From assembly GCA_023247215.1 (NCBI GenBank), contig JAHFGX010000001.1, positions 36,880 through 100,879 on the forward strand: DNA of 64,000 nt, written 5' to 3'. The translations under genes were made by a program, and so were the position numbers. This document shows, in pieces, positions 5,656-28,647 of the stretch. Each line of letters begins with the position of its first letter. The first letter of the stretch is position 1. This DNA comes from Candidatus Omnitrophota bacterium (lineage in GTDB: Bacteria; Omnitrophota; Gorgyraeia; Aquiviventales; Aquiviventaceae). Below the pieces are notes generated by a model. That model worked only from the letters and a program-made list of their open reading frames with translations. It ran no database searches and had not been told where the DNA came from.

Positions 5656-6395
5656 ACCTGGCTGCGCTGATCCCCGCTCGAGGCGGGTCCAAAGGCATCC
5701 CGAAGAAAAACCTCCGGAGGCTGGGGGACCATCCGCTTCTCGCCTATTCGATCGCGGCCGCGCGCGCCTGTCCCGCTATCGATCGCGTCATGGTCTCGAC
5801 GGACTCCCCGGAGATTGCCGAGGTCGCCCGCGCGTATGGCGCGGACATCCCGTTTGTGCGTCCGGCGGAATTTGCGCAGGACGCCTCGACCGATTTTGAC
5901 GTGGTGCAGCACGTGTTGCAGTCGTTGCAGCAGGCCCGGCCGGACTGGATCGTGTTCTGCCGCCCCACCACGCCGCTGCGCGATCCATCGCTGCTGTCCG
6001 CGGCGATCGAGTTGCTGAAATCGCGGAAGGACGCGACGTCGCTGCGTTCGGTCCACGAGCTGGCTGAGCCGCCGCAGAAAATGATGGGGATGACGGATGG
6101 CTTGCTCACCGGTCTGTTTCCTCATGAGACGAGGAGCGAATACTACAATCTCCCCCGGCAGGCGTTCCCGCCCGCCTATCACCCGAACGGCTATGTGGAC
6201 ATCATGCGCAGCGAGGTGGTGCTCCACCAGCGCGCGCTGTACGGCCCGCGCGTGCTCGCGTTCGTCACCCCCATCGTTACCGAAGTGGACCGCCAGGAGG
6301 ACCTGGACTACCTGGCCTACCAGCTGGCGCAGCACCCGTCGCCGCTGAGCCGGTTGTTGGACGCAGAGCAGTCGGTGGCGGGACGGAGAGGTTGA
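5652..6395 (+). CDS. neuA: Acylneuraminate cytidylyltransferase (CMP-nonulosonic acid synthetase), NeuA/PseF/LegF-like
   Basis: N-terminal LIPARGGSKGIPKKNL is a CTP_transf_3 signature of NeuA type. About 247 aa. Confidence 0.8.
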   Translation: MNLAALIPARGGSKGIPKKNLRRLGDHPLLAYSIAAARACPAIDRVMVSTDSPEIAEVARAYGADIPFVRPAEFAQDASTDFDVVQHVLQSLQQARPDWIVFCRPTTPLRDPSLLSAAIELLKSRKDATSLRSVHELAEPPQKMMGMTDGLLTGLFPHETRSEYYNLPRQAFPPAYHPNGYVDIMRSEVVLHQRALYGPRVLAFVTPIVTEVDRQEDLDYLAYQLAQHPSPLSRLLDAEQSVAGRRG

Positions 6396-12141: not shown

Positions 12142-12991
12142 ACGGCCTTCGGCTCGCGCACAAGGACGGCGCCTTTTCGATCTGACCGGCCGTGTGGCGG
12201 TCATCACCGGAGGCGCCGGTCTGCTCGGGGTGAAGCACGCCGAGGCGATTGCCGAAATGGGCGGCCTGCCTGTGCTGTGCGATGTGCGCGGTGAGGAGGC
12301 GGAGCGCGCCGCCGCGCGGATCGCCAAGCGCTATGCGGTCCGGGCGTTAGGCGTGCGTGCCGACATTACCGATCCGCGGCAGGTGGCCACGCTGCGGGAC
12401 CGCACCCTCTCCTCCTTTGGGCGCGTGGACATTTTGATCAACAACGCCGCGTGCAATCCGGCGGTGACGGCGGCGGGCCGCAATGGACCAGCATGGTCGC
12501 GGCTGGAGCAGTTTCCGTTGAAGGCATGGAACCGCGACGTCGCGGTCGGGTTGACCGGCGCGTTTTTGTGCAGCCAGGCGATCGGCGGCGCCATGGCCCG
12601 GCGCGGGCGCGGCGTGATTTTGAACATCGCCTCGGACCTCTCGGTGATCGCCCCGGACCAGCGGATCTACCGGCAGCCGAAGCGGGCTGCGGCTCAGCAA
12701 CCGGTGAAGCCCGTGAGCTACTCGGTCGTCAAAACCGGCCTCCTTGGCCTCAGCCGGTATCTGGCCACCTACTGGGCGGCGCAGGGCGTGAGGGTGAACA
12801 CGCTGTCCCCGGGCGGCGTGGCTGCGGATCAGCCTGAGGAATTCGTCCAGCGCCTTTCACAACTCATTCCTCTGAAGCGCCTGGCGCATCCTGATGAGTA
12901 TAAAGCGGCGGTGGTGTTTCTGGTGTCGGATGCCTCCTCGTACATGACGGGCGCGAACCTCGTGATGGACGGGGGGAGGAGCTGCTGGTGA
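12122..12991 (+). CDS. SDR-family oxidoreductase
   Basis: VAVITGGAGLLG, NNAA, YSVVK (YxxxK). Alternative GTG/ATG start at 12083. Confidence 0.75.
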   Translation: MPTTTSKRPSARAQGRRLFDLTGRVAVITGGAGLLGVKHAEAIAEMGGLPVLCDVRGEEAERAAARIAKRYAVRALGVRADITDPRQVATLRDRTLSSFGRVDILINNAACNPAVTAAGRNGPAWSRLEQFPLKAWNRDVAVGLTGAFLCSQAIGGAMARRGRGVILNIASDLSVIAPDQRIYRQPKRAAAQQPVKPVSYSVVKTGLLGLSRYLATYWAAQGVRVNTLSPGGVAADQPEEFVQRLSQLIPLKRLAHPDEYKAAVVFLVSDASSYMTGANLVMDGGRSCW

Positions 12992-14919
12992 AACCGAGCG
13001 CCGGGTTCTTCGAAACCGCGCAGGAGCTGGATCAGCTGCGCGCGTGGTCGGCGCAGACCAACACCGAGCTGATGCTGGTGGCGTTGACGCCGGAGGCGGA
13101 TGCCGCCGCAGAGCAGCGGGGGCTGACGTATCACAGCATTGAAGATTTGTACATGGAAGAGGATCTGGTGGTGCGCGGTTTGGCGCAATTTGAGATCTTG
13201 GAGCGGTTCTGCGATGCGGTGGACGAGGCGCTTCACGCCAATGCCGGGCCAGTCTCCGAGGTCCGCCATTTTTCACTCCGATATGAGTTTCAGTTTCTCA
13301 AAATGATTATGGACGCGTTGCTGCATCGGACGGCCACGCTGGCGTCGGCTCTGGAGACGCTGGCCCCCCAGGCGGTGGTCTATTGCCGTTATCCGTCGGA
13401 TGTGGTGCCGGCCGGTCGCTGGGCCATTCCATCTTCCGTCTCCCGCTGGCTGCTGCCGTTCGTTGCGGAACAGCGAGGTTGCCAGGCGATCGGCCTGACC
13501 GTTGCTGCCCGGCCGCCGGCGCGGTTTCCCGGCATGGCAGCGCAGTTGAAGCGGTGCGTCAGAAGCGCTTCGGCTCGCGCCATAGGGCTGGGGCGATGGT
13601 TGCGGCGCCACCATGCGGCTCTTGTCGGCGCATCCCGGCCCCCTGGGGTGCGGGGCTCACAAGAGGCGACCCTCGTGTTGACGGGTTTGTGGTCGGATCG
13701 GGATGCGCTGCAGGCATGGCTGGCCGAAGGCGGCCGCCTGATACATTGGCGGACATTAGTGAGGCGCGTGGCATCGCCGTCCCCCGATGCTGCCGCCGAT
13801 GCTGAGCTTGAGGCGGTCGTCGAGCGCTGCTGGAATGCGCTGAGACACGATGCCGAGGTGCGAGCGTTGTTCAGGATTGACGGCGTGGATCTCGCCCCGC
13901 TGGTCGAGCAGCCGCTCCGCTCGTTGTTCGCGGATCTCTTGTCCAGGCATTGCCGGATTTCGCGCCGGATGGATGCGGCCTTCAAGACGGTCAGCCATCC
14001 CATTGTCCTTGGATCAACCTTCGTCCGGGTTGAAGAGGTGGCGTGTGCCGCGGCTGCCCGCCGGGCAGGGATCCCGGTGATTGCGTATCAGCATGGAGGG
14101 TTTCTTGGGTATGTCGATTTTCCGATGCAGCGGTTTTGCGACATGGGGCTGCCGGACTATTACCTCAGTTACGGAAGGGGTGTTTCGGAAGCCATGGAGC
14201 GGTTCTCCGGGCAGACCATCCCTGTGACCATTGGCTCTTCGGATCTTGATCGCTTGATGACCGCGCATCGGAAGCCCGGCCGCCGCCCGGGCCGGACGGC
14301 CGTGTATGTGGTGACGCTGCTCATGGGCGACCGGCGCTATTTCACTCTCCATGCCTATCCGGATATCCAGTATTGGCGGCTGCAGCGGCAGGTAATCGAG
14401 CGGTTGAGCCACGCCGACATCGAGTTGATCGTGAAGCTGGACCCGCGCGATATGGTGCCCAATCCTCTGAAGTCATGGGCCCGGCGGCAGCGCGTGAAGC
14501 GGTGCCGGTTCGTGCGGGATGTGTCGTTTGCCGAGGTGCTCGGCCGGGGAGACCTGATCATCATCGACAGCCCCTCGACCACGCTGCTGCAGGCGCTGGC
14601 GACGCATAAGCCGGTGATCGCGTTCGCGGATCGCCGCTTCATTCATTTCACGCCGGAGGCGACCGGGTTGCTCAGAAAGCGCGCGGTTTTTTCCACCACG
14701 CCGGAAGAATTTTTTCGGGACATCGATGCGGCTGTGCACACCCCGTCGTGGGGACCGGTCTCGCCGGTAAACGATGAGTTCCTCAGCCGCTATGGCACCC
14801 ATGAGAACGATGGCGGCTCGGCGCGCCGCGCCGCGCAGGCGCTGTGGGACATCGCGCGCCACCCGCGCGATGCACGGGGGGAGCAGGCACCAGCGGCATT
14901 CACGAGCGTCGGAGGATAA
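12988..14919 (+). CDS. Large TagF/KpsC-like transferase (CDP-glycerol glycerophosphotransferase / capsule-polysaccharide-synthesis superfamily), 643 aa
   Basis: C-terminal block DLIIIDSPSTTLLQALATHKPVIAF resembles the D-x-LITDYSS ... KPxIxF signature of TagF/KpsC/KpsS-type transferases. The N-terminal 350 aa has no recognisable motif. GTGA overlap start. Confidence 0.4.
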   Translation: MKPSAGFFETAQELDQLRAWSAQTNTELMLVALTPEADAAAEQRGLTYHSIEDLYMEEDLVVRGLAQFEILERFCDAVDEALHANAGPVSEVRHFSLRYEFQFLKMIMDALLHRTATLASALETLAPQAVVYCRYPSDVVPAGRWAIPSSVSRWLLPFVAEQRGCQAIGLTVAARPPARFPGMAAQLKRCVRSASARAIGLGRWLRRHHAALVGASRPPGVRGSQEATLVLTGLWSDRDALQAWLAEGGRLIHWRTLVRRVASPSPDAAADAELEAVVERCWNALRHDAEVRALFRIDGVDLAPLVEQPLRSLFADLLSRHCRISRRMDAAFKTVSHPIVLGSTFVRVEEVACAAAARRAGIPVIAYQHGGFLGYVDFPMQRFCDMGLPDYYLSYGRGVSEAMERFSGQTIPVTIGSSDLDRLMTAHRKPGRRPGRTAVYVVTLLMGDRRYFTLHAYPDIQYWRLQRQVIERLSHADIELIVKLDPRDMVPNPLKSWARRQRVKRCRFVRDVSFAEVLGRGDLIIIDSPSTTLLQALATHKPVIAFADRRFIHFTPEATGLLRKRAVFSTTPEEFFRDIDAAVHTPSWGPVSPVNDEFLSRYGTHENDGGSARRAAQALWDIARHPRDARGEQAPAAFTSVGG

Positions 14920-18238: not shown

Positions 18239-18278
18239 GCCGGGCGACGGTGGCCGCCACGCTCCATCAGTGAGGCCC

Positions 18279-19076
18279 ATGGAACGCTTGTTCTTCCAAC
18301 GCGAATGGCAGCGCATTTCGCTGAAACCGCTAGCTTCGGCCTCTGCCGCGCCGGTGGCGGACCGCGGCGTCTATGCCACCTTCTATCGGCAATGGACAGC
18401 GGACGGCCAGGCGCTGGCTCCGGAATGGGTGGCGGTCAAGCGCCGCATCGGGGAGTGGATTGCCGACGCGTGCGTGGCGCCTCGCGGCGCGAACGGTTCC
18501 ACATGGGTCTTATCCGTGGGGGCCGGGCTGGGATTCGTCGAGCGCGTGCTGGTGGAGCGCGGCTATCAGGTGGATGCCCTGGAGTGCGAAGCGGAATCCC
18601 TCAAGTATCTTGCCACCCATGTGGCGGGGGTGCGGGGCATGATCGGGGATGCGAGGCAGATTCCATGCCGCGACGGGTTGTATGACGTGGCGTATCTCTC
18701 AACGGTGGATTACTGTTTCGATCGGTTGGAGTACGTGCAGGTGCTGCGCGAGTTGCGCCGGGTGATGCGGCCTGAAGGCCGGGTCGTGGTCATCTGCGCT
18801 TCCAATCTATGCCTTCAAGAGATCGCGCGGCTGGCTGCCCGGCGCGTGCTGGCTCGCCGATTGGCGCGGGACCGGGAGCAGGTGCCGTGGGGGTATATGC
18901 GAACCATTGGCGCTCATCTGCGCGCAGGGCGCACCGCCGGATTGGCGTGCGAGGAGGTATCGCTGTTCGATCAGGCGTTCCGGCTGCTCGGCACCCGCCC
19001 AGGCGCGTCCTGGCGGGCCGGATGGCCGACGTTCAATGACGCTGTGGTGGCAGTGATCTTCAGGCGCGCCGCATGA
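18279..19076 (+). CDS. Class I SAM-dependent methyltransferase
   Basis: Motif I VLSVGAGLGF, motif II acidic residue VDALE, motif III MRPEGRVV. Confidence 0.65.
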   Translation: MERLFFQREWQRISLKPLASASAAPVADRGVYATFYRQWTADGQALAPEWVAVKRRIGEWIADACVAPRGANGSTWVLSVGAGLGFVERVLVERGYQVDALECEAESLKYLATHVAGVRGMIGDARQIPCRDGLYDVAYLSTVDYCFDRLEYVQVLRELRRVMRPEGRVVVICASNLCLQEIARLAARRVLARRLARDREQVPWGYMRTIGAHLRAGRTAGLACEEVSLFDQAFRLLGTRPGASWRAGWPTFNDAVVAVIFRRAA

Positions 19077-20227
19077 TACCAACCGCTCGACCGTCGCTCG
19101 GGCAGGAGGAGCTCAACGCCGTTGGGGAGGTTTTCAGCAGCGGCTGGCTGGGATTGGGCTCGACCACCTATGAATTCGAGGAGGCCATCAAGCGGCGGCT
19201 TGGCGCGGCATATGTGGTGGCGGTGAATACCGGGTCCTCCGCGCTCCATCTGGCCATCGAGGCGTTTGGGATCGGGGCCGGGGATGAGGTGATCGTTCCC
19301 TCCTTGACCTTCGCCGCCTCGGTGCAGGCGATCATTGCCGCCGGCGCGCGGCCGGTCTTCTGCGACGTGGACGAAGATACCTTGCTGATGGATGCGGCGG
19401 ATGTGGAGCGGCGCGTGACACCCCGCACCCGCGGGGTGATGCCGGTGCACTACTGCGGGCAGCCGTGCGACATGGACCGGCTGCTCGTGCTGGCCGAGCG
19501 CCAGGGGTTCGCGGTCATCGAGGACGCCGCCCACGCGTTCGGCTCCACGTCGCGCGGCCGGATCATCGGCAGCTTCGGCCATGCGACCTGCTTCAGCTTC
19601 GATCCGATCAAGACCATCACCTGTGGCGAGGGGGGCGCGGTGGCGCTGGCCGACGGCGAGGCGGCCGAGCGGCTGCGCCGGATGCGGCTGTTGGGCATTG
19701 ACAAGGATGCCTGGCGGCGCCAGGGGCAGGCGAAGAGCTGGTGGTACGAGGTAACCGCGCCGGGCTGGCGCTACCACCTGCCGAATTTCTGCGCGGCGAT
19801 CGGGCTGGCGCAGCTGCGCCGGCTCGACGAGATCATCGCTCGGAGGCGGGCGGTGTGCCTGGCGTACGACGCGGCGTTCGGCGAGCTGGCGTCCGTCCGC
19901 CCGCTCCGCGTGAATTATGAGGAGACCGCCCCGCAGCTCTACATCGTCAAGGTGCCGGCGGACGCCCGGGGCCGATTCATGGAGTTCCTGGCGGCGCGCG
20001 GCGTCGGCACCGGCGTCCATTATCTGCCGAACCACCGCCAGCCGTTCTTTGCGCCCTATGCCGCCGGGGCGTTGCCGCGCACCGACCGCGTGGCGGGAGA
20101 GATCGTGACGCTGCCGCTGTATACCGACCTGACCGATGCGGAGGTGGGGACGGTGGTCGAGACGGTGAGGGCGTTCGACCGGATGGTGGCGAGGGCGGTC
20201 TGTGCAACGCCGACGAGGGCGTCCTAA
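19073..20227 (+). CDS. DegT/DnrJ/EryC1/StrS family PLP-dependent sugar aminotransferase
   Basis: N-terminal RPSLGQEELNAVGEVFSSGWL; the SFDPIKTIT region is the likely Lys-PLP site; 384 aa. ATGA overlap. Confidence 0.85.
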   Translation: MIPTARPSLGQEELNAVGEVFSSGWLGLGSTTYEFEEAIKRRLGAAYVVAVNTGSSALHLAIEAFGIGAGDEVIVPSLTFAASVQAIIAAGARPVFCDVDEDTLLMDAADVERRVTPRTRGVMPVHYCGQPCDMDRLLVLAERQGFAVIEDAAHAFGSTSRGRIIGSFGHATCFSFDPIKTITCGEGGAVALADGEAAERLRRMRLLGIDKDAWRRQGQAKSWWYEVTAPGWRYHLPNFCAAIGLAQLRRLDEIIARRRAVCLAYDAAFGELASVRPLRVNYEETAPQLYIVKVPADARGRFMEFLAARGVGTGVHYLPNHRQPFFAPYAAGALPRTDRVAGEIVTLPLYTDLTDAEVGTVVETVRAFDRMVARAVCATPTRAS

Positions 20228-21855
20228 TGACGACCGACCTGCGCGTGCTCGACTGCACCCTCCGCGACGGCGGGTACTACAACGAGTGGAACTTTCCCCG
20301 CCCGGTGGTGGACCGCTATCTCCAGGCGCTGCAGTCGGCCCGGGTGGACGCCATTGAAATCGGGTTCCGATTGCTCCCAGAGGACCGCTTCTTGGGCCCC
20401 TATGCCTACTCCACCGACGCGTTCCTCAAGACGCTGCCCCTTCCTAAGGAGGCGCTCCTGGGGGTGATGGTGAATGCGAAATCCCTCCTCGCCTCTGCGG
20501 ACGGTCCGGAGGCGGCGCTCGCGTCGCTGTTTCAGAAGGCGGATCGCTCCCCGGTCCGGCTGGTTCGCATTGCCGCGCACTTCGATGACGTGGCGCGCAG
20601 CGAGGCGATCGCCTGCTGGTTGAAGGCCCAGGGGTACCTGGTGGGGATCAACCTCATGCAGGCCGCCGGCAAATCGGACGAGGAGTTGCAGCACGCCGGG
20701 GCCGCCATCCAGCGGTGGGGGGCCGTGCACGTGCTCTATTTCGCGGATTCGCTGGGCAACATGACGCCCCCGCGCGTGGCCGCGACGATCCGCGGACTGC
20801 GGCACGGCTGGCAGGGACCGCTGGGCATCCACGCCCATGACAATATGGGGCAGGCCGCGGCCAATTGCCTCGCGGCCACTGACGGCGGAGTCGCCTGGGT
20901 GGACGGAACGATCCTGGGCATGGGGCGGGGAGCCGGCAACGCGCGCACGGAGCATCTGCTCTTGGCCCTGAACGACCGAACGCCGAATCGCTACGCTCCG
21001 GAAGCGCTCTTTCCTATCGTCATGGAAGAGTTCGAGCAATTGCGGCGGCGGTATGGATGGGGCCCCAACCTCCTCTATTACTTGTCCGCCGCGTATTCGA
21101 TCCATCCGACGTTCGTCCAGGAGCTGATGGGCCGGGGGCATGACACGCACCACATGCTCGAGGCGCTGGAGTTTCTCCGGCGGTCAGGCGCGGCGATGTA
21201 CACGGATGAGATTCTGCATCAGGCGCTGTCCGGGAATGGGGGCGCCGGCGAGGGCGGGTGGTCCGCGCAGGGCTGGGCGCAGGGCAAAACCGTCATGATC
21301 GTCGCCCGCGGGCCGGGGATGCATCAGCACCTCGACGCGCTCTGCCGCTTCGTGGACGAGACGTCTCCGGTGGTGATCGCGCTGAACACGAACCCCGACT
21401 TTCCCAGGGAGAAGGTGACGGTGTTTGCCGCGTGCCACCGGATGCGGCTGCTGATGGATTTCAAGGACTACCAGCAGGGGGATCGGCCGCTGATCGCCCC
21501 GATTAGCATGATCCCCGACGAGGTGCGGGCCACACTGGTCCAGTCCCCATCGCTTCAGATTTTGGATTACGGGCTACGCGTCCAGCCGCGGACGTTCGAG
21601 GTGGGGCCCACCGGCTGCGTCATTCCGGGCTACGCGGTGGCCGCATATGCGATGGCGGTCGCCGAAGCCGCGGGGGCGGCGCGCATCCTGCTGGTGGGCT
21701 TCGACGGCTATGGGCCGGCCGATTCCCGGAGCCTGGAGATGTCGAATATCTTCCGGCTCTACCAGGCGCGGCCGACGACGGTGCCGCTGCTCGCGGTCAC
21801 CCCGACGACCTATGACATCCCGAAAAGCTCCGTCTACTCGCCGGGGCTGCGATGA
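20227..21855 (+). CDS. DRE-TIM metallolyase (HMGL-like / pyruvate-carboxyltransferase-type aldolase) with about 200-aa C-terminal extension
   Basis: LDCTLRDGGY (the LRDG metal-binding Asp of 4-hydroxy-2-oxovalerate aldolase, IPMS, HMG-CoA lyase) and IEIGF; HAHDNMG (H-x-H metal ligands). The C-terminal 340-542 has no recognisable family. Confidence 0.65.
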   Translation: MTTDLRVLDCTLRDGGYYNEWNFPRPVVDRYLQALQSARVDAIEIGFRLLPEDRFLGPYAYSTDAFLKTLPLPKEALLGVMVNAKSLLASADGPEAALASLFQKADRSPVRLVRIAAHFDDVARSEAIACWLKAQGYLVGINLMQAAGKSDEELQHAGAAIQRWGAVHVLYFADSLGNMTPPRVAATIRGLRHGWQGPLGIHAHDNMGQAAANCLAATDGGVAWVDGTILGMGRGAGNARTEHLLLALNDRTPNRYAPEALFPIVMEEFEQLRRRYGWGPNLLYYLSAAYSIHPTFVQELMGRGHDTHHMLEALEFLRRSGAAMYTDEILHQALSGNGGAGEGGWSAQGWAQGKTVMIVARGPGMHQHLDALCRFVDETSPVVIALNTNPDFPREKVTVFAACHRMRLLMDFKDYQQGDRPLIAPISMIPDEVRATLVQSPSLQILDYGLRVQPRTFEVGPTGCVIPGYAVAAYAMAVAEAAGAARILLVGFDGYGPADSRSLEMSNIFRLYQARPTTVPLLAVTPTTYDIPKSSVYSPGLR

Positions 21856-22610
21856 CGGCGCGCCTCGCCGTGCCGACGGTGCCGGCCGCATGGCTGGACG
21901 GGGCGCGGCACGTCTGTTGCGATAAAGACGGCGTCCTCGTGGACGTCCACCGGTACTGGACGCACACCTCGCGGCTGCGCGCGCAGCGCCTCGTGGAGCG
22001 GTTTCAGCTTCCGGCGGCCAGCGCGGACGGCCTGCTGCAGGCGATGGGCATTGACGCGGGCGCGGGGCGGATCCGGGCGCCGGGACCGGTGGGCTACGCG
22101 CCCCGGGCGGTCGTGATCGAGCATACCGCGCGCTACCTCGCGTCCCGGTCCGTGGCGGCCAGCGCGGAAGAGCTCCAAGACCTCTTCCGCGACGTGGACC
22201 AGCGGCAGCAGGCCGGGGAAGATTACGATGTGGCGATGCTGCCGGGAGTGCAGGAGTTTCTAGCCGGCGTGAAGCGGCGCGGGTGCCGGCTCTCGATCTA
22301 TACCTCGGACCGGCGGGATCATGCCCTGCGGATCCTGCATCGCCTGTCGCTCGATGCGTACGTGGACGAGGTGGTGGGGGGCGGGTGCGTGAGCCGGCCG
22401 AAGCCGGATCCGGAAGGGTTCCTCCTGGCGTGCGCGCGCGTCGGGGTGTTGCCTGAGGCGTCGGTGTATATCGGCGATACGGTCGAGGATCTCCAGATGG
22501 GTCGTGCCGGCGGCGCGAGCAAAGTGATCGGGGTGGCCAGCGGGTTGGGCAGCGCGCCGGAGCTGCTGGTCCAGACCCCCTATGTGTGCGAGCGGCTGGC
22601 CGATGGCTGA
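21852..22610 (+). CDS. HAD-IA family hydrolase (sugar phosphatase)
   Basis: Motif I CCDKDGVLVD (DxDGxL), S/T motif IYTSD, KPDPEG, and motif IV GDTVED. ATGA overlap. Confidence 0.7.
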   Translation: MTARLAVPTVPAAWLDGARHVCCDKDGVLVDVHRYWTHTSRLRAQRLVERFQLPAASADGLLQAMGIDAGAGRIRAPGPVGYAPRAVVIEHTARYLASRSVAASAEELQDLFRDVDQRQQAGEDYDVAMLPGVQEFLAGVKRRGCRLSIYTSDRRDHALRILHRLSLDAYVDEVVGGGCVSRPKPDPEGFLLACARVGVLPEASVYIGDTVEDLQMGRAGGASKVIGVASGLGSAPELLVQTPYVCERLADG

Positions 22611-23451
22611 GACGCTCTACAACGCGACGGCCGAGCTCGTGAAGGACGGCGGCGACGCCCGGGTGATCCGCGTGCTTCCGGATCAGCCGAAGGGCCGCCA
22701 CCTCGCCGGCCAGTACGGGAGCCTCGGCATGCCGTCGGAGGTTCATCCAGGTCGGTTGATCAAGCGGCCGTATTCGCTCTCGTGCTCCATGATCAATCTG
22801 GAGACGCGGCAGCTCATTGACGCCCAGGAGACCCCGTACTACGAGTTCTACTTTAACCGCGTGACGCCGAGGCCGGCCGGGCCGGAATCGCTGACCCCGA
22901 AGCTGTTCCGCCTGCGCAGCGGCGACCGGATCTTTTGCGGCCGGAAGATCACCGGGTACTACACGCTGCAGGACGTGCCGGCTGGACGCCACCTGCTGTT
23001 CATCAGCACGCTGACGGGGGAGTCAGCGAACAATGCGCTGATTGCGCAGGCCCTGCGGGAGGGCCGCTGGGGGCGGATCAGCCATCTGCTCGTCGGGACG
23101 AACGGCTGGCGCTCGCTCTACGAGGCGGAGCACGACGCCCTCATGCGCGCGATGCCGACGTACCGCTGCCGGACGCTCCGCGTGGAGACGTACGCGGCGG
23201 TGGAGGCGCGCTTGGCGGAGGGCCTTCGGGATGCGGCGCGGGCGGAGGACGAGCTGGGCTTCGCGTTGGATCCCGCGCGCAGCCACGTGTTCCTCTGCGG
23301 GGACCCGGCGCTGATCGGCGCGCCGGCCAAGCAGGGGGCCTGGCGCTATGTGACGCCGACGCATGGGGCGATCCCCATCCTGACGGCCGGCGGGTTCTCG
23401 CTTCGCACGCGGTTCAAGTTAGGGACGATCGAGTATGAAACCTATTGGTGA
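22603..23451 (+). CDS. Ferredoxin-NADP+ reductase-like FAD/NAD(P)-binding oxidoreductase
   Basis: RPYSLS (the RxYS FAD-binding motif of the FNR family). LLFISTLTGESANNA resembles the NAD(P)-binding GTG loop. 8-bp overlap with the HAD gene. Confidence 0.5.
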   Translation: MAETLYNATAELVKDGGDARVIRVLPDQPKGRHLAGQYGSLGMPSEVHPGRLIKRPYSLSCSMINLETRQLIDAQETPYYEFYFNRVTPRPAGPESLTPKLFRLRSGDRIFCGRKITGYYTLQDVPAGRHLLFISTLTGESANNALIAQALREGRWGRISHLLVGTNGWRSLYEAEHDALMRAMPTYRCRTLRVETYAAVEARLAEGLRDAARAEDELGFALDPARSHVFLCGDPALIGAPAKQGAWRYVTPTHGAIPILTAGGFSLRTRFKLGTIEYETYW

Positions 23452-24463
23452 ATCCATCGCGTGTGACCGCGTGGCGCTGCAGCGCCAGCTCCTCGCCTCC
23501 GGCCGGTTCTTCAAGCTGATCTGCGGCGCCGGCAACGAGGATGCGGAGGAGGTCTACAAGCTCTCGCTCGTCTACACGCTCGCGGGCGCGGCCGGCATCG
23601 ATCTGTCGGCCCGGCCGGACGTGGTGCGGGCCGCCCGCCGGGCGGTGGAGGACGCGCAGGCGCGGGTCAGGGCGGCCGGGCGGCCGGAGCCCCCATCTCC
23701 CTATCTGACGGTTTCGGTGGGCATGCCGGGCGATCCGCATGTGCGCAAGGCCCGCATTATCCAGGACGCCTGCACCCAGTGCAACGCCTGCATCCCGGTC
23801 TGTCCCACCGAGGCGATCCCGTCCTCCTTGGTCATCATCGAGAGCCGGTGCATCGGATGCGGGGCCTGCTCCGTGGCCTGCCAGGACGACGCGGTGTCGT
23901 ACACTCATAAGACGATCGAAATGGAAGCGGTGCTGCGCGATTGCCTGGCGGCCGGGGCGGAGAATATCGAGCTCCACGCCGCCGTCCGCGACCATGAGCC
24001 CGTCCTCAAGGAATGGGAGCTTGTCACCCGCCTCCTGCCCGGGCAGTTCGTGAGCGTCTGCCTGGACCGCGGGTACCTCTCGAACCGCGAGCTGCAGGTC
24101 CGGATCGAGCGGATGCTCGAGCTGGCGCACGGGCGGATGATCGTCCAGGCCGACGGGATTCCGATGAGCGGGGGTCGGGACGACTACAACACAACGCTGC
24201 AGGCGGTGGCGACGGCGGATGTCGTCGCCAAGACCAAGCTGCCGGTGCACCTGCTGCTGTCCGGCGGCACCAACGCCAAGACCGCCCAGCTCGCCCGCCT
24301 GTGCGGGGTGCCGTTTGCCGGCGTGTCGGTCGGGACGTTTGCCCGGCATCTGGTGTACGAGGAGATCAATGCCCCGGCGTTTCCGGGCGGCGGGACGCTG
24401 GAATCCGCCGTGGAGAAGGCAGACGCGTTGGTGCAGGCCTGCCTGCAAGACGGCTCGCCATGA
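23435..24463 (+). CDS. Ferredoxin-like protein with two 4Fe-4S cluster motifs plus about 200-aa C-terminal domain (possibly LdpA-like)
   Basis: CTQCNACIPVCP and CIGCGACSVAC, i.e. two CxxCxxCxxxC(P) motifs. 17-bp overlap with the FNR-like gene. Confidence 0.65.
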   Translation: MKPIGESIACDRVALQRQLLASGRFFKLICGAGNEDAEEVYKLSLVYTLAGAAGIDLSARPDVVRAARRAVEDAQARVRAAGRPEPPSPYLTVSVGMPGDPHVRKARIIQDACTQCNACIPVCPTEAIPSSLVIIESRCIGCGACSVACQDDAVSYTHKTIEMEAVLRDCLAAGAENIELHAAVRDHEPVLKEWELVTRLLPGQFVSVCLDRGYLSNRELQVRIERMLELAHGRMIVQADGIPMSGGRDDYNTTLQAVATADVVAKTKLPVHLLLSGGTNAKTAQLARLCGVPFAGVSVGTFARHLVYEEINAPAFPGGGTLESAVEKADALVQACLQDGSP

Positions 24464-25227
24464 GCCATGCGGGCCTGCGCGCAATCGGCATCATCCCGGC
24501 GCGGCTGCAGTCGTCCAGGCTGCCGGAGAAGGCGCTGGCCGACATCTGCGGCCTGCCCATGATCGTCCACGTGTATCAGCGCTGTGCGATGAGCCGCAGC
24601 CTGGACGCGGTCTATGTCGCGACCGATCACGAACGGATCCGGGAGGTTGTCACCGCCGCCGGGGGACAGGTGCTGATGACCGGCGCGCACCATCGGACGG
24701 GGACCGACCGCCTGGCCGAGGCGGCGGCGGCCCTGGAGTGCGACATCGTAGTCAACATCCAGGGGGATGAAGCGCTGGTGCGGCCGGAGCACATTGACGC
24801 GGGGGTGGCGGCCCTCCGCGAGGATCCCACGCTGAACGTCTCCATGTTGGTGAACCCGTTTCGGACGTACCAGTCGCCGTCGGACATCAAGGCGGTCCTG
24901 AACGAGCAGGGGGACGTCCTCTACTTCTCCAGGGCGGACATCCCGTCAGGGGCTCGGACGCCGGATCCTGAAATGCTGAAGGCGTATCACGTCGTGTCGT
25001 TCCGGAAGCCGTTGTTGCTGGCGTACGCGCAGTGGCCGCAGGGCCGCTTGGAGCGGATCGAGTACAACGAGTACCTGCGGATTCTGGAGCGGGGGCACCG
25101 CATCCGGGCGGTGCAGGTGGAGAGTGCGGCCGTCAGCGTGGATACGCCGGAGGATCTCGCCGTGGTCAGGCGCCTGATGGAGGCGGATACGCTCCGTCGG
25201 CGCTACCAGGAACAGGAGGTGCGATGA
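24460..25227 (+). CDS. kdsB: 3-deoxy-manno-octulosonate cytidylyltransferase family (CMP-Kdo synthetase KdsB/KpsU-like)
   Basis: Alignment by eye to E. coli KdsB: IIPARLQSSRLPEKAL, PMIVHVYQR, ATDHE, VNIQGDEA, LYFSRADIP, VDTPEDL. ATGA overlap. Confidence 0.85.
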   Translation: MSHAGLRAIGIIPARLQSSRLPEKALADICGLPMIVHVYQRCAMSRSLDAVYVATDHERIREVVTAAGGQVLMTGAHHRTGTDRLAEAAAALECDIVVNIQGDEALVRPEHIDAGVAALREDPTLNVSMLVNPFRTYQSPSDIKAVLNEQGDVLYFSRADIPSGARTPDPEMLKAYHVVSFRKPLLLAYAQWPQGRLERIEYNEYLRILERGHRIRAVQVESAAVSVDTPEDLAVVRRLMEADTLRRRYQEQEVR

Positions 25228-26756
25228 AGGTGTTGTTTCTCTATCCGAATCTCCGAGGCATGAACATGCTGCCGCCGGCGATTGCCATTCTCTCCGCGCT
25301 GCTGAAGCGGCACGGGGTGGAGTCCGAGCTCTTTGACACGACCTATTGGCGCATCCCGGGCGAGGACAACTTCGACAGCGACAAGGCCAAGGAAAAGAAC
25401 CTGAACGTGCGGCCGTTTGACTTCGCGGAGAAGGTGACCCTGCACGAGACGGACGTCTTCGAGGACTTCGAGAAGAAGGTCCAGTCATTCTCCCCCGACC
25501 TCATTGCGGTCTCGGCGACCGAAGATATGTTCCTGCTCGCCATCCGGCTGCTCGAGCGCGTCCGCTCGCGGGGGATCCCGACCCTCCTCGGAGGCGTGTT
25601 CGCCACCTTTGCGCCGGAGCTGGCCCTCAGCTATCCCCACATTGACATGGTGTGCGTGGGGGAAGGGGAGAAGTGCCTCGTGGAGCTGTGCGATCGGATG
25701 GGCCGCGGCCGCAGCTACGATGACGTGACGAACCTGTGGGTCAAGAAGCCGGACGGGTCGATCGTGAAAAATCTCATCACGGACCCGGTGGATTTGTCCG
25801 AGACCATGATCCCAGACATCGGCATCTTCGAGGAATCGCGCCTGTATCGTCCCATGGCCGGCCAGGTCTACCGGATGCTGCCCGTCGAGACGCACCGTGG
25901 CTGCCCGTTCACCTGCGCGTTCTGCAACTCCCCGTCCCAGGAGCGTTTCTACGAGCAGGAGACCGGCAAAAAGTTCCTTCGCGTCAAGCCGATGCCCAAA
26001 GTCCGCGAGGAGCTCCTCTATTACCGGGACGTCATCAAGGCCGAGTATTTCTACTTCTGGGCCGATACCTTCCTGGCATGGTCCCAGAAGCAGTTCGACG
26101 AGTTCTGCGAGATGTATGCCGACATCCGGATGCCCTTCTGGATTCAGACGCGCCCGGAGACGCTGACCGAGTATCGGGTCCGCCGGTTGAAGGCGGTGGG
26201 GCTGCACCGGGTGGCGTGCGGGATCGAGCATGGCAACGAGAAGTTCCGGCGCGAGCGGGTGGACCGGCGCATGAAGAACGACGACTTGGTCAAGTGGCTG
26301 CGGATTCTCAACGACGTCGGCGTGCCCTACAGCGTCAACAACATCGTCGGGTTCCCGACGGAGACGTATGAGCTGGCCTGGGATACGATCCGGCTCAACC
26401 GGCAGGTCAACGCGGACAACCATAACTGCTACTCCTTCTCGCCCTTCCACGGGACGCCGCTGCGCACGCTGGCGGAGCAGATGGGCTACATCACGCCGGA
26501 GGTCATCACCCGGTCGCTCACGCGGGACTCGATCTTGGACATGCCCCAGTTCCCTCGGACGCAGGTGGAAGGGTTCCGGCGGTGCTTCGTGATGTACGTG
26601 AAGTTCCCGGAGGAGCGGTGGCCGGAGATCAAGCAGGCGGAGGCCTTCACGCCGGAGGGGGATGCGATTTGGGAACGGTTGCGCGATGAGTTCGCCGCGA
26701 CCTTCTTTGCGTCGAAGCCAGAGGAGGAGTCCGGTGCCAACGCCATTCGCGCATAA
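25224..26756 (+). CDS. B12-binding-domain radical SAM enzyme (class B radical SAM methyltransferase-like)
   Basis: N-terminal cobalamin-binding Rossmann region (MKVLFLYPN ... LLGGVFAT). Radical SAM CxxxCxxC motif HRGCPFTCAFCNS; 510 aa. AGGAGG Shine-Dalgarno upstream and ATGA overlap with kdsB. Confidence 0.8.
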   Translation: MKVLFLYPNLRGMNMLPPAIAILSALLKRHGVESELFDTTYWRIPGEDNFDSDKAKEKNLNVRPFDFAEKVTLHETDVFEDFEKKVQSFSPDLIAVSATEDMFLLAIRLLERVRSRGIPTLLGGVFATFAPELALSYPHIDMVCVGEGEKCLVELCDRMGRGRSYDDVTNLWVKKPDGSIVKNLITDPVDLSETMIPDIGIFEESRLYRPMAGQVYRMLPVETHRGCPFTCAFCNSPSQERFYEQETGKKFLRVKPMPKVREELLYYRDVIKAEYFYFWADTFLAWSQKQFDEFCEMYADIRMPFWIQTRPETLTEYRVRRLKAVGLHRVACGIEHGNEKFRRERVDRRMKNDDLVKWLRILNDVGVPYSVNNIVGFPTETYELAWDTIRLNRQVNADNHNCYSFSPFHGTPLRTLAEQMGYITPEVITRSLTRDSILDMPQFPRTQVEGFRRCFVMYVKFPEERWPEIKQAEAFTPEGDAIWERLRDEFAATFFASKPEEESGANAIRA

Positions 26757-26769
26757 GAGCGCACGATGG

Positions 26770-28647
26770 GTGCTGACGACCCCCAGCCGCGCTGCGCGCT
26801 GGGCGCGCGCCGGGTCGCCTCGCGAACGGGAATGGTGCTACTTCGGCGCCGATGCGGCCCAGCGGGCGCGGCTCGAGGGCGTCCTGGCTCCGGCGAAGCG
26901 GGTGGAGCTGGCGGAGGGGCTCACCCGCGTCGCGTACGACGAAAAGCAGCCGTTTCTCGATTGGCTGCTCGAGGTGGGGCGGCACCAGCCGGACCACGTC
27001 TCGTGGTGGAGCTCCACGGTCGCGACGTGCAGCCCGCTGCAGACCGACATGTTTTTGCTGGCGTGCTATACCCGGCTGCTAGAGGCATGGCTGCGCGAGC
27101 CACCACCGGGGCCGCAGCGCTTGATCGTGGTGGAGGATCCCTGGCTCGGGCTGACGTTGCGGCGGCATGTCCAGCGTGATTCCCGCGTCGTCTGTGACGG
27201 CGTGGGATTCCTGGCCTGCGCTCGCGATGCCGTTCTCCGAATCGGGAAGGCGCCCCGGGTCGCGCTGGCGACGCTCTATTCGGCCGTGCGATCGTTCGTC
27301 CTGACCCGGCGGCTGTTTCCCCGCGTGGCGGATCTCGCTCCTGGACACCCGCCGGGCTCGACGCTCCTGTATACCTGGATTCGCCCTGAATCCTTTTCGG
27401 CGCCGGGGCGGCTGAACGATCCCTGGACCGGACGGCTCGACACCATCTTGAACCATCAGGACGGGCGCGTCGTTCGGCTCAGCTCGTCGGACATCCCGCC
27501 CGCCTTGCTGCGCCGGTTGCAGCGGCACGGGGTGCCGTGCCTCGTGACGCCGAGGCATCTGACCCTGGGCGATCTGGTGCGAGCCCTCGGCGCTTGGTTT
27601 CGCGTGCAGCGACTCGAGCGGCTGCCACGCTACCAGGGATGGGACTACCGGTGGCTGCTGGCTCGGGAAGAGCTTCGCGAATGGAGCCGCTCCGATTTTT
27701 GGCACTATCGGCTCGGCTACTTTGCGACGCGCCGGATCGCGGCGCGCTACGGACGCCAGGTGCAGAGCGTCATTTACCCCTTTGAGAACCAACCCTGGGA
27801 AAAGCTCTTCTGCCTGGCGTGGCGTGAGTGCGCCCCTCACGTGAAACTCATTGGGTATCAGCATTCGTGGGTGCCCCCCTTGCTCCTGCCCTATGCGCTC
27901 GCGAACGGGGCGTGGGACCTCCTGCCATTGCCGGATCAGATCGTGACGAGCAGCGAGTTCAATCTGGAACGGCTCTCGGATGGAGGCTATCCAGCTGAGC
28001 AGCTCCTCAACGGCGGCGCGCTTCGGCACGAATATCTGCATACGAAGCTTGATGAAATCGCGCGGCAACGGGCCGCCCGCGCCGAAGGGCATGGTGGCGA
28101 GGCGCCCACGGTGCTGGTGACCTTTCCGTTATCCCGGCCGCATGCCGGAAGCCTGCTCGCGGATTTCCTGTCGGCGTTCAGAGAGCCGCTGATCTTGAAG
28201 CCTGGGCGGGACGGGACGGTGCAGTTTCAGTTGAAATTCCATCCCGTCCTTCCGCTAGGGCACCTCCTGCCGGCCGGTGTCGCGCTTCCTCCGTGGATGA
28301 CCATCGTGCACGCGCCGATGGAGCAGTTGCTGCCGGGGACGGATCTGCTGCTGTATGTGGGGCCGACGTCAAGCTGGTGGGAAGCGTTTCTGAGCGGCGT
28401 GCCGGTGTTGAAATACCGGACCGACCTGATTGACATCGACGCCGGCAACCAGGCAGATGCCATGCCGGTGCCGGTGTGTTCCGGCGCCACCCTCCGCGCC
28501 TCCCTGGACCGCCTCCTGCGCGGCGACCGCCCCGCCGCCGGGCGCCCGCCGGCCGGCCTGGTGGAGAAGATGTACGGCCGGGTCAACGAGGCGCTCTGGG
28601 TCTCCGTCACACGGGGCCGGCCGCTGCCGGCCGGATCGTCAGGATAA
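26770..28647 (+). CDS. Large hypothetical protein, TagF/KpsC-like transferase superfamily member (about 625 aa); start uncertain (GTG 26770 or ATG 26686 inside the rSAM gene)
   Basis: C-terminal DLLLYVGPTSSWWEAFLSGVPVL resembles the LITDYSS ... KPxI block of Glyphos_transf/Capsule_synth enzymes. There is no in-frame ATG between 26686 and the long ORF body. Confidence 0.35.
   Translation: MLTTPSRAARWARAGSPREREWCYFGADAAQRARLEGVLAPAKRVELAEGLTRVAYDEKQPFLDWLLEVGRHQPDHVSWWSSTVATCSPLQTDMFLLACYTRLLEAWLREPPPGPQRLIVVEDPWLGLTLRRHVQRDSRVVCDGVGFLACARDAVLRIGKAPRVALATLYSAVRSFVLTRRLFPRVADLAPGHPPGSTLLYTWIRPESFSAPGRLNDPWTGRLDTILNHQDGRVVRLSSSDIPPALLRRLQRHGVPCLVTPRHLTLGDLVRALGAWFRVQRLERLPRYQGWDYRWLLAREELREWSRSDFWHYRLGYFATRRIAARYGRQVQSVIYPFENQPWEKLFCLAWRECAPHVKLIGYQHSWVPPLLLPYALANGAWDLLPLPDQIVTSSEFNLERLSDGGYPAEQLLNGGALRHEYLHTKLDEIARQRAARAEGHGGEAPTVLVTFPLSRPHAGSLLADFLSAFREPLILKPGRDGTVQFQLKFHPVLPLGHLLPAGVALPPWMTIVHAPMEQLLPGTDLLLYVGPTSSWWEAFLSGVPVLKYRTDLIDIDAGNQADAMPVPVCSGATLRASLDRLLRGDRPAAGRPPAGLVEKMYGRVNEALWVSVTRGRPLPAGSSG

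Follow-up and report, generated by a model that had tools for sequence, protein, structure and literature searches.

The 64,000-nucleotide stretch of Candidatus Omnitrophota DNA analysed here (the window) carries, inside a large LPS/O-antigen gene cluster, an accessory-rich form of a three-gene cassette that is widespread and has its counterpart in KdsA/KdsC/KdsB. The core of this cassette, which is present in hundreds of bacterial species, encodes an aldolase, a HAD hydrolase and a KdsB-like cytidylyltransferase. We put the probability at about one half that the cassette uses a pyruvate aldolase to make a Kdo-like acidic sugar, which is then CMP-activated, with accessory tailoring. No account of the cassette was found in curated families or in the literature searched, as the sequence-only reading had expected of this gene combination. 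Nor did the literature searched describe a glycan that contains the product.

The run of seven coupled genes that had been proposed from the letters alone was borne out in coordinates, strand, domains and overlapping starts and stops. Every gene of the run lies on the + strand, and Pfam and NCBIfam confirm their domains. The run consists of a DegT-family PLP aminotransferase (19073..20227; PF01041, 375 bits), an HMGL-like DRE-TIM core enzyme of 542 aa (20227..21855; PF00682, 91 bits), a HAD-IA hydrolase (21852..22610; PF00702, 94 bits), an Fpr-type ferredoxin/flavodoxin-NADP+ reductase-like (FNR-like) protein (22603..23451; NF008178, 34 bits), an LdpA-like 2x[4Fe-4S] protein (23435..24463; LdpA_C, 50 bits, and two Fer4 matches), the KpsU/KdsB-type cytidylyltransferase, also a core enzyme (24460..25227; PF02348, 164 bits), and a class B (cobalamin-binding) radical SAM enzyme, B12-rSAM (25224..26756; B12-binding, 52 bits, and Radical_SAM, 74 bits). 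A 637-aa GT-B protein of the LIC13510 family (TIGR04326-like; P0121) follows on the + strand at 26734..28647, where 26734 is probably its start. At each junction of the run the stop and start overlap, by 1 to 23 nt, which indicates translational coupling; examples are ATGA at 21852, 24460 and 25224, and ATGGCTGA at 22603. The true starts of the KdsB-like and rSAM genes are internal to longer ORFs, and the FNR-like ORF opens at 22582 with a likely start at 22603. The order HMGL, HAD, FNR, LdpA, CTP_transf_3, B12-rSAM and 630-aa transferase is repeated in three relatives (loci L001, L082 and L083), whose aldolases are 61-88% identical to that of the window, and this order is therefore no chance juxtaposition.

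Neighbourhoods were counted over 81 aldolase loci, each from a different species. A KdsB-like (CTP_transf_3) gene comes after the aldolase gene in 76 of the 81 loci and a HAD gene does so in 51, while the LdpA-type loci carry an alternative HAD family. What is conserved is therefore a three-gene unit of wide distribution. Its hosts belong to Pseudomonadota, SAR11, Bacillaceae, Actinomycetota, Omnitrophota and Elusimicrobiota; in Rhabdothermincola, no HAD gene lies near the aldolase and CTP_transf_3 genes. Of the two genes whose co-occurrence with the DRE-TIM protein had been proposed for checking, kdsB is tightly linked to it and B12-rSAM is found in about 6-8 loci. A NeuB gene is present in just 13 of the 81 loci, usually with a second CTP_transf_3 gene at the same locus, and neither a KdsA-type nor a NeuB-type synthase is part of the cassette. 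A further pyruvate aldolase is encoded in some loci (HpcH in 8 and DHDPS-type in 3), so the enzyme that builds the backbone is not certain. A marine variant of the cassette carries a DHQS/Fe-ADH-like enzyme; this family acts on 3-deoxy-ulosonate substrates (DAHP, and Kdo in the case of KdnB).

The 542-aa protein combines a DmpG-type aldolase with an MptE/Maf-like nucleotide-binding domain in one chain. Residues 1-~335 form the pyruvate aldolase, a class II, metal-dependent DRE-TIM enzyme of DmpG type whose helical communication-type subdomain spans about residues 250-335. The expectation of a pyruvate aldolase was upheld, as the nearest enzymes are of DmpG type and not IPMS or homocitrate synthases, and the Arg/Asp/His/His metal site is conserved. 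The suggestion that the C-terminal 200 aa could be a DmpG communication domain failed, since this part (residues ~340-542) has a Rossmann fold of the MptE/Maf (DUF115)-like type, which it shares with the CMP-sugar-using Maf and the ATP-using MptE. The aldolase is 26% identical to E. coli MhpE, and an invariant Tyr aligns with the RDG-x-H His of that enzyme (= catalytic His21 of DmpG); the aldolase chemistry may therefore differ. Compared with the DmpG/BphI/MhpE 4-hydroxy-2-oxovalerate aldolases, the window enzyme also lacks a DmpF-type acylating dehydrogenase partner, carries the additional 200-aa domain, and lies in a context of glycan biosynthesis instead of aromatic catabolism. A separate observation that counts against the preferred reading is that 3DXI is a structural-genomics entry and that the aldolase family has no member with an assigned substrate.

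The Maf/MptE fold and the Tyr at the catalytic-His position also suit an unlikely alternative, in which the aldolase is guided by its nucleotide-binding domain and, instead of building the sugar backbone, attaches three carbons from pyruvate as a shewanellose-type branch on a nucleotide-linked keto-sugar, or produces a small keto-acid substituent, and the KdsB-like enzyme activates housekeeping Kdo like KpsU. The 4,6-dehydratase-like SDRs, the ArnB-like DegT and the Asn-synthase-type amidotransferase of the window, together with the LPS core genes of the host, are consistent with this alternative. However, the aldolase/KdsB-like/HAD trio is kept in Bacillaceae and Actinomycetota, which lack a Kdo pathway, no dehydratase is consistently adjacent, and the HAD phosphatase would be left without a role.

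The KdsB-like protein passes both NCBIfam cutoffs (NF009905, 260 bits against 255; TIGR00466, 162 bits against 155), whereas the PseF model scores it at 41 bits only. Its best PDB match is E. coli KpsU (1GQ9, 174 bits). The gene encodes a KpsU/KdsB-type CMP-ulosonic acid synthetase that is closest to capsule KpsU. Its linkage to the aldolase and HAD genes over the 81 loci, including those of Gram-positive hosts, argues that this copy is not simply housekeeping. The window host is a diderm with LPS core genes, and in principle the KdsB-like enzyme could draw on Kdo from its housekeeping pathway, a point that weighs against our preferred reading. The HAD-IA hydrolase is presumed to be the pathway phosphatase. 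Its family (cluster 21) is the one that accompanies the LdpA-like gene, and is distinct from the 222-aa HAD found in the minimal cassette. The HAD is fused to FNR in L001, L082 and L083 (534-535 aa), HAD-transferase fusions also exist, and the HAD is therefore tied to the pathway.

Those KdsB scores and the match to KpsU would also fit an improbable second alternative, in which the cassette makes ordinary CMP-Kdo or another known ulosonic acid such as Kdn, the aldolase and HAD replace KdsA and KdsC non-orthologously, and the rSAM and LdpA-like proteins modify other parts of the glycan. Kdo is common in capsules and O-antigens, which favours it. Against it, Gram-negative hosts already own KdsA and KdsC, and capsule loci normally duplicate only KpsF and KpsU. 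The recurrent neighbour families, many of which are unannotated, included no recognisable arabinose-5-phosphate isomerase. The rSAM, LdpA and HAD genes lie within the stretch from the aldolase gene to the transferase gene, and their overlapping stops and starts suggest action on the same intermediate.

The analysis establishes domain identities, folds, synteny and co-occurrence. Under the preferred reading, for which we infer all of the chemical steps and the sugar identity, the aldolase domain would condense pyruvate with a (probably phosphorylated) aldose to give a 3-deoxy-2-ulosonic acid phosphate, and PEP would not be used. The HAD phosphatase would then remove the phosphate and the KpsU/KdsB-type enzyme would form the CMP-sugar. 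The MptE/Maf-like domain would bind a nucleotide, which may be ATP (kinase-type role) or the CMP-product (feedback site), although the scheme itself gives no reason for such a domain, which counts against it. The scheme would mirror KdsA/KdsC/KdsB except that the first enzyme is non-homologous to KdsA. The PEP-independent pyruvate-aldolase route of the sequence-only reading is plausible: the DmpG-type family, the metal site and the KdsB/HAD linkage speak for it, while the Tyr in place of the catalytic His speaks against it. The common logic with the CMP-Kdo pathway is aldol-type condensation, HAD-type dephosphorylation and CMP activation, and the window cytidylyltransferase is a true homologue of KdsB/KpsU. 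The CMP-Kdo pathway differs in its PEP-using KdsA, which stands in place of a metal-dependent DRE-TIM aldolase with an MptE/Maf-like domain, and in KdsC, which is HAD type IIIA instead of type IA. The window cassette also lacks an A5P isomerase and has additional FeS, flavin and B12-rSAM enzymes.

The FNR-like protein has no Pfam match, but the PDB FNRs 4B4D, 8DOS and 1FDR match it at E 1e-7 to 6e-6, and it is 55-63% identical to orthologues in L001, L002, L082 and L083. The LdpA-like protein had been described as a two-cluster ferredoxin-like protein, and it is not a plain ferredoxin. Its 2x[4Fe-4S] module, to which its PDB matches are limited, has non-ferredoxin sequence on both sides, and the C-terminal part is Pfam LdpA_C. 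CircClkLdpA (156 bits, cutoff 450) and DUF561 (20 bits, cutoff 21.6) both score below cutoff; the DUF561 match suggests a TIM barrel. The family is 60-83% identical across metagenomes. The ferredoxin cysteines C113/116/119/123 and C139/142/145/149 are invariant, as are three further cysteines (C30, C170 and C209) and the glycine-rich SGGTN and GxSxGT loops, which resemble phosphate-binding loops. The protein is probably a redox tailoring enzyme. Fed by the Fpr-like NADPH reductase, it would most likely act on the phosphorylated intermediate, for example by IspG-type reductive dehydroxylation.

The FNR-like and FeS proteins had also been proposed to supply the rSAM enzyme, as a dedicated pair, with electrons. 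This was contradicted by the loci, as LdpA and B12-rSAM occur in about 6-8 of the 81 loci each, independently of each other; the LdpA-like gene is without B12-rSAM in 5 loci and B12-rSAM is without LdpA in 5. The B12-rSAM gene is therefore one accessory module and LdpA/Fpr/HAD another. B12-rSAM is also found in LdpA-less aldolase cassettes of Magnetospirillum and SAR11, and its orthologues in L001, L082 and L083 are 79-82% identical. The CxxxCxxC motif is present in 'GCPFTCAFC'. The enzyme falls in no curated NCBIfam clade (BchE, 78 against a cutoff of 481; HpnJ, 68 against 578; PhpK, 68 against 600), with all scores far below cutoff. In the PDB it matches 9CCB (41 bits) and AprD4 (34 bits) best. 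We regard it as an accessory tailoring enzyme, with C-methylation of the sugar or CMP-sugar as the default guess. Fom3, a class B radical SAM methylase, methylates a CMP-linked substrate, and the window rSAM gene lies directly after the cytidylyltransferase gene; methylation of a CMP-sugar is thus a reasonable model. However, the window enzyme has no meaningful sequence relationship to any curated clade, and its proposed substrate is a sugar instead of a phosphonate.

The least probable alternative is that the run is a mosaic of independent polysaccharide functions in one operon with no single seven-gene pathway, for which the restriction of wide linkage to aldolase, cytidylyltransferase and HAD, the mutual independence of LdpA and B12-rSAM and the ArnB-like DegT (17 of 81 loci) speak, but the HMGL-to-LIC13510 block keeps its order with 54-88% identity in three relatives, the HAD fusions exist, and the accessory genes sit within the core cassette and not beside it.

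The sequence-only reading had assigned amination of the ulosonic acid to DegT. The membership of DegT in the aldolase pathway is uncertain. By similarity it is closest to ArnB-type NDP-4-keto-sugar aminotransferases, with ArnB as its best PDB match (293 bits) and the Kdo8N transaminase KdnA (5K8B) at 163 bits. It accompanies the cassette in only two of four close relatives. A 65%-identical orthologue adjoins the LIC13510-like gene in L082, whereas the DegT genes of L001 and L083 are merely distant ones (31% and 28% identity) inside the NeuB cassettes. Kdo8N tailoring in Shewanella (KdnB oxidase and KdnA aminotransferase) is a precedent for a DegT-family aminotransferase on a Kdo-type sugar, and the marine version of the cassette carries a DHQS/Fe-ADH-like gene. 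The window DegT is, however, much closer to ArnB, and the window cassette has no KdnB-like oxidase. A class I SAM methyltransferase (18276..19076, + strand; Methyltransf_11/25) possibly performs accessory O- or N-methylation; in L082 its 65%-identical orthologue lies between the B12-rSAM and LIC13510-like genes.

The two flanking proteins of ~640 aa, which had been described as TagF/KpsC-like, turned out to be generic GT-B proteins of the LIC12162 (TIGR04331) and LIC13510 (TIGR04326) families. Neither matches Pfam Glyphos_transf or Capsule_synth, the domains of TagF/TarL and KpsC. Their resemblance to TagF goes no further than the general GT-B fold; UDP-GlcNAc 2-epimerase-type and ordinary GT-B enzymes match as well or better, and KpsC is absent from the top 60 matches. 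This GT-B similarity includes the CMP-Kdo-binding domain of WaaA. The transferase genes come after the cassettes, and each flanking protein is paired with one CMP-sugar cassette. The 637-aa protein is presumed to be the transferase for the CMP-sugar and would move the product onto an LPS-linked glycan. The 643-aa LIC12162-family transferase (12988..14919, + strand; TIGR04331, 55 bits) probably serves a separate nonulosonic-acid cassette (4370..6395, + strand) and not the aldolase cassette.

That cassette encodes a NeuB-type PEP-dependent synthase (4370-5353, + strand; PF03102, 211 bits; NeuB_NnaB, 216 bits), which has its own PseF-like cytidylyltransferase partner (5652-6395, + strand; PF02348, 86 bits; PseF, 149 bits) apart from the aldolase cassette. 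The NeuB/PseI/LegI pathways with NeuA/PseF/LegF likewise give CMP-activated keto-acid sugars for surface glycans from cassettes beside dedicated transferases. Their synthase is of the NeuB family and depends on PEP, and their cytidylyltransferase is of NeuA/PseF type, whereas the aldolase cassette has no NeuB. A LIC12162 protein (PF27859) adjoins a NulO-type CTP_transf_3 gene in L001, L082 and L083, and in L001 and L083 a NeuB gene is also within that cassette.

The sequence-only reading had claimed a run of translationally coupled genes at 19073-28647, and each predicted gene was found. These genes lie on the + strand and encode a DegT protein (19073-20227), an HMGL-like protein of 542 aa (20227-21855), a HAD protein (21852-22610), an Fpr-like protein (ORF from 22582, likely start 22603, end 23451), an LdpA-like protein with two [4Fe-4S] motifs (23435-24463), a KdsB-like cytidylyltransferase (true start 24460, end 25227), a B12-binding radical SAM enzyme (true start 25224, end 26756), and a protein of about 637 aa that resembles LIC13510 (26734-28647). 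Neighbouring genes overlap by 1-23 nt at each junction. The same gene order is kept in three metagenomic relatives, namely L001, L082, and L083, with aldolases that share 88%, 76%, and 61% identity with that of the window.

The aldolase family comprises more than 5000 90%-identity clusters at E <= 1e-10, a lower bound among 8000 scored candidates. The scan of one genome per species returned at least 581 confirmed matches. The hosts among the matches listed include Marinobacter, Idiomarina, Shewanella, Alteromonas, Pseudomonas, Methylobacillus, Magnetospirillum, and SAR11, together with Bacillus, Rossellomorea, Microthrix, Ilumatobacteraceae, Elusimicrobiota, and Omnitrophota. Eighty loci were fetched and all of their ORFs were clustered, with counts given over 81 loci. 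A CTP_transf_3 gene homologous to the KdsB-like gene of the window adjoins the aldolase gene in 76 of the 81 loci, and a gene for a 222-aa HAD protein then follows in 51. No other neighbour is widely kept among the 81 loci, therefore the conserved unit consists of the aldolase/MptE-like fusion, the KdsB-like cytidylyltransferase, and HAD. DegT is present in 17 of the 81 loci and NeuB in 13, where the locus usually has another CTP_transf_3 gene as well. LdpA, the window-type HAD, and the B12-radical SAM enzyme are each present in about 6-8 of the 81. The cassette is real and widespread, and the chemistry proposed for it here is predicted from sequence. Full-text literature searches returned no description of an aldolase/KdsB-like/HAD cassette.

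The aldolase part of the 542-aa protein is a (beta/alpha)8 barrel that exhibits the DRE-TIM features, which are an Arg-Asp conserved behind strand 1 and an HxH pair that binds the metal. Arg13, Asp14, His202, and His204 are invariant in the family and align with E. coli MhpE. An invariant Tyr17 ('RDGGYY') occupies the position where the RDG-x-H motif of MhpE ('RDGMH') has His. In DmpG-type aldolases this His is catalytic (His21 in DmpG, His20 in BphI) and is the second residue past the metal Asp. All NCBIfam scores are below cutoff, with PRK08195 at 112 bits (cutoff 229), TIGR03217 at 95 (cutoff 286), NifV at 79, and IPMS at 50 or less. The PDB profile search returned 3DXI at E=7e-72, DmpG at 2e-27, and IPMS at 6e-15. 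3DXI, a structural-genomics entry, is the N-terminal domain of a 'putative aldolase' from Bacteroides vulgatus. The profiles favour DmpG/MhpE over NifV and IPMS, so the aldolase-like assignment, which had been set beforehand against an IPMS-like one, is retained, and the N-terminal part is by these scores nearest to the DmpG/MhpE type of class II pyruvate aldolase. Since the scores fall short of the curated DmpG-type cutoffs, the protein forms a separate unnamed family. Its members are named only 'aldolase catalytic domain-containing protein', and NCBIfam (June 2026) has no model for it. No DmpF/MhpF-type acylating aldehyde dehydrogenase was found in the window or among the recurrent neighbours. 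The 542-aa protein shares Arg-Asp and HxH with the DmpG-type aldolases but lacks their catalytic His and their acylating dehydrogenase partner.

The C-terminal 200 aa had been suspected to be a DmpG communication domain, but they instead resemble the MptE/Maf type and are predicted to bind a nucleotide. The profile of residues 336-542 matches Pfam MptE-like (PF01973) below threshold in 13 of 21 members. In a library of 1.8 billion proteins, this profile recovered 1215 50%-identity clusters at E <= 1e-3 and 729 at E <= 1e-10. Most of the 150 matches listed have the MptE-like domain at residues ~340-540 of proteins of ~540 aa; the remaining proteins are shorter and in many cases seem to be truncated gene calls. 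A stand-alone MptE/Maf-like protein of ~295 aa is encoded directly upstream of the aldolase gene in Idiomarina-type loci (L051 9093-9980, also L050, L053, and L056). This protein, which matches PF01973 below threshold and has a GNGPSL motif, may be a Maf-type transferase for the CMP-sugar.

The KdsB-like protein has the CTP_transf_3 fold and exceeds the cutoffs of NF009905 (260 bits, cutoff 255), NF003952 (246, cutoff 193), and TIGR00466 (162, cutoff 155). It scores 174 bits against E. coli KpsU (1GQ9) and only 41 bits against PseF. On these scores the cytidylyltransferase is a genuine KdsB/KpsU homologue, as expected if the product of the cassette were ordinary Kdo or Kdn, one of the rival explanations. 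The linkage to an aldolase rather than to KdsA in 76 of the 81 loci, including those of Gram-positive hosts, argues for a substrate other than, or additional to, Kdo. Another rival is that the aldolase adds a pyruvate-derived branch or substituent and the KdsB-like enzyme uses housekeeping Kdo. The Gram-positive hosts weigh against it. Gram-positive lineages carry the trio too, hence the KdsB-like gene is more than a housekeeping CMP-Kdo synthetase; that it might be only this was an objection that the sequence-only reading had raised against itself. That the array is a mosaic of unrelated functions agrees with the sparse spread of the accessory genes and is improbable given the order kept in three relatives.

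The main reading, to which we give a probability of about one half, is a biosynthetic route that starts with an aldolase, needs no PEP, and yields a CMP-activated Kdo-like sugar, with lineage-specific tailoring by FeS/flavin and B12-radical SAM enzymes and a dedicated GT-B transferase. The cassette shares its three-step logic with KdsA/KdsC/KdsB, but its first enzyme is not homologous to KdsA. A more tentative proposal is that at least several hundred species, which range from SAR11 and marine Gammaproteobacteria to Bacillaceae and Omnitrophota, encode an unrecognised family of surface sugars. The sugars would be 3-deoxy-2-ulosonic acids that a DRE-TIM pyruvate aldolase forms independently of PEP and a KdsB paralogue activates with CMP. 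In the lineage of the window, an IspG-like FeS enzyme would deoxygenate or reduce the sugar, and the B12-radical SAM enzyme would C-methylate the sugar or CMP-sugar. Kdo and the sialic, pseudaminic, and legionaminic acids are CMP-activated keto-acid sugars, and such sugars shape LPS, capsules, flagella, and immune and phage recognition. To our knowledge, the known routes to them all begin with a PEP-dependent synthase of the KdsA or NeuB type. If true, the aldolase-based route would be a third entry to these sugars, abundant marine bacteria would carry unknown sugars on their surfaces, and glycan typing would gain a new marker. The new chemistry would lie in the DRE-TIM/Maf-like fusion, a probable TIM-barrel FeS enzyme, and a sugar-directed B12-radical SAM enzyme. 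The hypothesis is directly testable because the core has three genes and is present in cultured strains, among them Marinobacter nauticus DSM 50418, Methylobacillus flagellatus, Idiomarina aquatica, Alteromonas hispanica LMG 22958, and Rhabdothermincola sediminis.

Eight loci have an LdpA-like gene and the window-type HAD gene, usually with an HpcH/HpaI aldolase gene, between the aldolase and the cytidylyltransferase. An Fpr-like gene is present in some of these eight and is fused to HAD in three (534-535 aa; L001 11635-13239, L082 10656-12260, and L083 10623-12230). HAD and Fpr-like are separate ORFs in the window (22582-22610) and in L002. The window split was considered as a frameshifted fusion and is probably genuine, given the 8-nt overlap (ATGGCTGA) and the separate ORFs of L002. 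The Fpr-like protein scores 34 bits against NF008178 (cutoff 390), has no Pfam match, and matches FNRs in PDB at E of about 1e-7 over residues 78-245.

The LdpA-like protein has the architecture of circadian LdpA (LdpA_C at 50 bits and two Fer4 domains), with both [4Fe-4S] motifs, but scores 156 bits against the circadian LdpA equivalog NF045992 (cutoff 450). By this score it is a family distinct from circadian LdpA, found in a polysaccharide context. It had been described as ferredoxin-like and is not a plain ferredoxin, since its two-cluster module has non-ferredoxin sequence on either side, of which the C-terminal part matches LdpA_C, and since C30, C170, and C209 are invariant outside the two ferredoxin motifs. 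It also has SGGTN and GxSxGT loops that resemble phosphate-binding loops. Identity within the family is 60-83% across phyla, far above that of its neighbours. A DUF561 match just under cutoff suggests a TIM barrel; the PDB profile search with the LdpA-like alignment matched the ferredoxin module and nothing else, as did the PDB sequence searches. IspG is a TIM-barrel enzyme with a [4Fe-4S] cluster that is reduced through Fpr. By analogy with IspG, the LdpA-like protein would perform a redox step on a phosphorylated intermediate, which would also explain why it is constantly paired with its own HAD. We know of no enzymatic role described for LdpA-type proteins.

The radical SAM enzyme has an N-terminal B12-binding domain (PF02310, 52 bits) and a radical SAM core (PF04055, 74 bits) with the CxxxCxxC motif as 'CPFTCAFC'. 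Its scores against the NCBIfam models of characterised B12-radical SAM clades (BchE, HpnJ/P/R, PhpK, GenK-type, and others) are all 78 bits or less against cutoffs of 250-750, hence it matches no curated clade closely. Its best PDB match is 41 bits, and it has no close solved relative. The FNR-like reductase and the FeS protein had been proposed as its dedicated electron supply. Orthologues of the enzyme occur with LdpA in the window and the three close relatives. LdpA occurs without it in five loci (L002, L003, L004, L007, and L054), and it occurs without LdpA in five loci of Magnetospirillum type and SAR11 (L005, L013, L062, L065, and L078). Because each occurs without the other, the proposal of a dedicated supply is abandoned. 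Methylation of the sugar or CMP-sugar is our default guess for its role, and Fom3 is a precedent for B12-radical SAM methylation of cytidylylated substrates. A phosphonate-type pathway (FrbC-like HMGL, Fom1/Fom3-like cytidylyltransferase and B12-radical SAM enzyme) was rejected, as the scanned ORFs of the window include no PEP mutase or decarboxylase and the cytidylyltransferase belongs to the KdsB type rather than the MobA/LicC type.

The DegT protein is closest to ArnB (293 bits), followed by the PseC-type models, and scores 163 bits against KdnA, the Kdo8N transaminase. It may aminate the ulosonic acid, or else an NDP-4-keto sugar that serves another part of the glycan. A 65%-identical DegT orthologue lies beside the LIC13510-like gene of L082, together with an orthologue of the upstream SAM methyltransferase. 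The DegT genes of L001 and L083 are distant only and lie inside NeuB cassettes. An Arn-like module might perhaps account for DegT. E1/E3-type 3-deoxygenation by a DegT-like dehydrase and an FNR-like reductase was rejected, since the catalytic Lys motif is intact in DegT ('SFDPIKTITCGEGG') and the score against RfbH is only 157 bits.

A second pyruvate aldolase is a recurrent accessory of the cassettes. A class I aldolase of the DHDPS/NanA family lies between the cytidylyltransferase and HAD in L005, L013, and L060, and an HpcH/HpaI class II aldolase is present in eight other loci. No HpcH aldolase like that of the relatives was found in the window, and L082 also has none. In the marine metagenome locus L086 (8001-13734), a split transketolase and DegT come before the aldolase and CTP_transf_3 cassette, and a DHQ-synthase/Fe-ADH-like enzyme, an SDR, and HAD come after it. 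This DHQS/KdnB-like enzyme fits a 3-deoxy-ulosonate intermediate.

The two proteins of ~640 aa had been described as TagF/KpsC-like, which holds only at the level of the GT-B fold. Neither has a Pfam match, including Glyphos_transf and Capsule_synth, and the PDB profile search gave only weak matches to GT1 C-terminal parts. Their sole family matches are below cutoff, with the downstream protein at 75 bits against TIGR04326 (LIC13510, cutoff 250) and the upstream protein (12988-14919) at 55 bits against TIGR04331 (LIC12162, cutoff 225). One homologue of the LIC13510-like protein bears the JGI label TIGR04326, and PF27859 is present on the counterparts in L001, L082, and L083. The model of the downstream transferase (pLDDT 90) exhibits a GT-B fold, and KpsC is not among its best 60 matches. 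The aldolase cassette is followed directly by the LIC13510-type gene. In L001, L082, and L083, the LIC12162-type genes adjoin a different cassette with a NulO-type CTP_transf_3 gene, and this cassette includes NeuB in L001 and L083. The window has NeuB at 4370-5353, a PseF-like gene at 5652-6395, and the LIC12162-like gene at 12988-14919. From this gene context, the simplest reading makes each large protein the transferase of one CMP-sugar. A fused HAD domain is present on two LIC13510-family relatives of the downstream transferase (P0135, 829 aa; P0175, 816 aa), and it suggests that dephosphorylation may be coupled to, or follow, sugar transfer, as in Bcs3-type capsule polymerases.

The region at 4370-9843 is a second, unusual nonulosonic-acid-type cassette that differs from the canonical Pse/Leg/Neu gene set. 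It consists of NeuB (216 bits, below the NeuB cutoff), the PseF-like cytidylyltransferase, a class-III (GABA/ornithine-type) aminotransferase, an SDR, and a xylose-isomerase-like TIM barrel that resembles L-ribulose-5-P 3-epimerase. The NulO-type CTP_transf_3/LIC12162 cassettes of close relatives hold radical SAM proteins of ~700 aa, one of them B12-binding (L001 2914-5004; L082 1-3892), and the nonulosonic acids of this lineage may also be radical-SAM-modified. Directly after the LIC12162-like gene lies a PhyH-type Fe(II)/2-oxoglutarate dioxygenase (14923-15927) for which no closer family was found, and which might hydroxylate a sugar as KdoO does Kdo.

The window (64 kb, ~67% G+C) is filled nearly throughout with + strand polysaccharide genes. 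The remaining genes encode GT2, GT4, and GT9 (heptosyl) transferases, a WecA-like initiating transferase, a Wzy_C ligase/polymerase-type protein, a flippase-like protein, a carbamoyltransferase, a deacetylase, several SDRs, and an NDP-hexose C-methyltransferase. The gene content is that of an LPS core and O-antigen region in a diderm host, and Omnitrophota MAGs are the nearest named relatives. The C-methyltransferase is of the TylC3 type (Methyltransf_13/14; 54983-56410) with 4,6-dehydratase/epimerase genes on either side; a C-methyl branched deoxysugar is probably another constituent of the glycan. Two GT87/GT-C-like membrane glycosyltransferases are encoded at 38969-40150 and 50908-52161. 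The latter is the sole clear minus-strand gene of the array and coincides with a local flip in AT skew.
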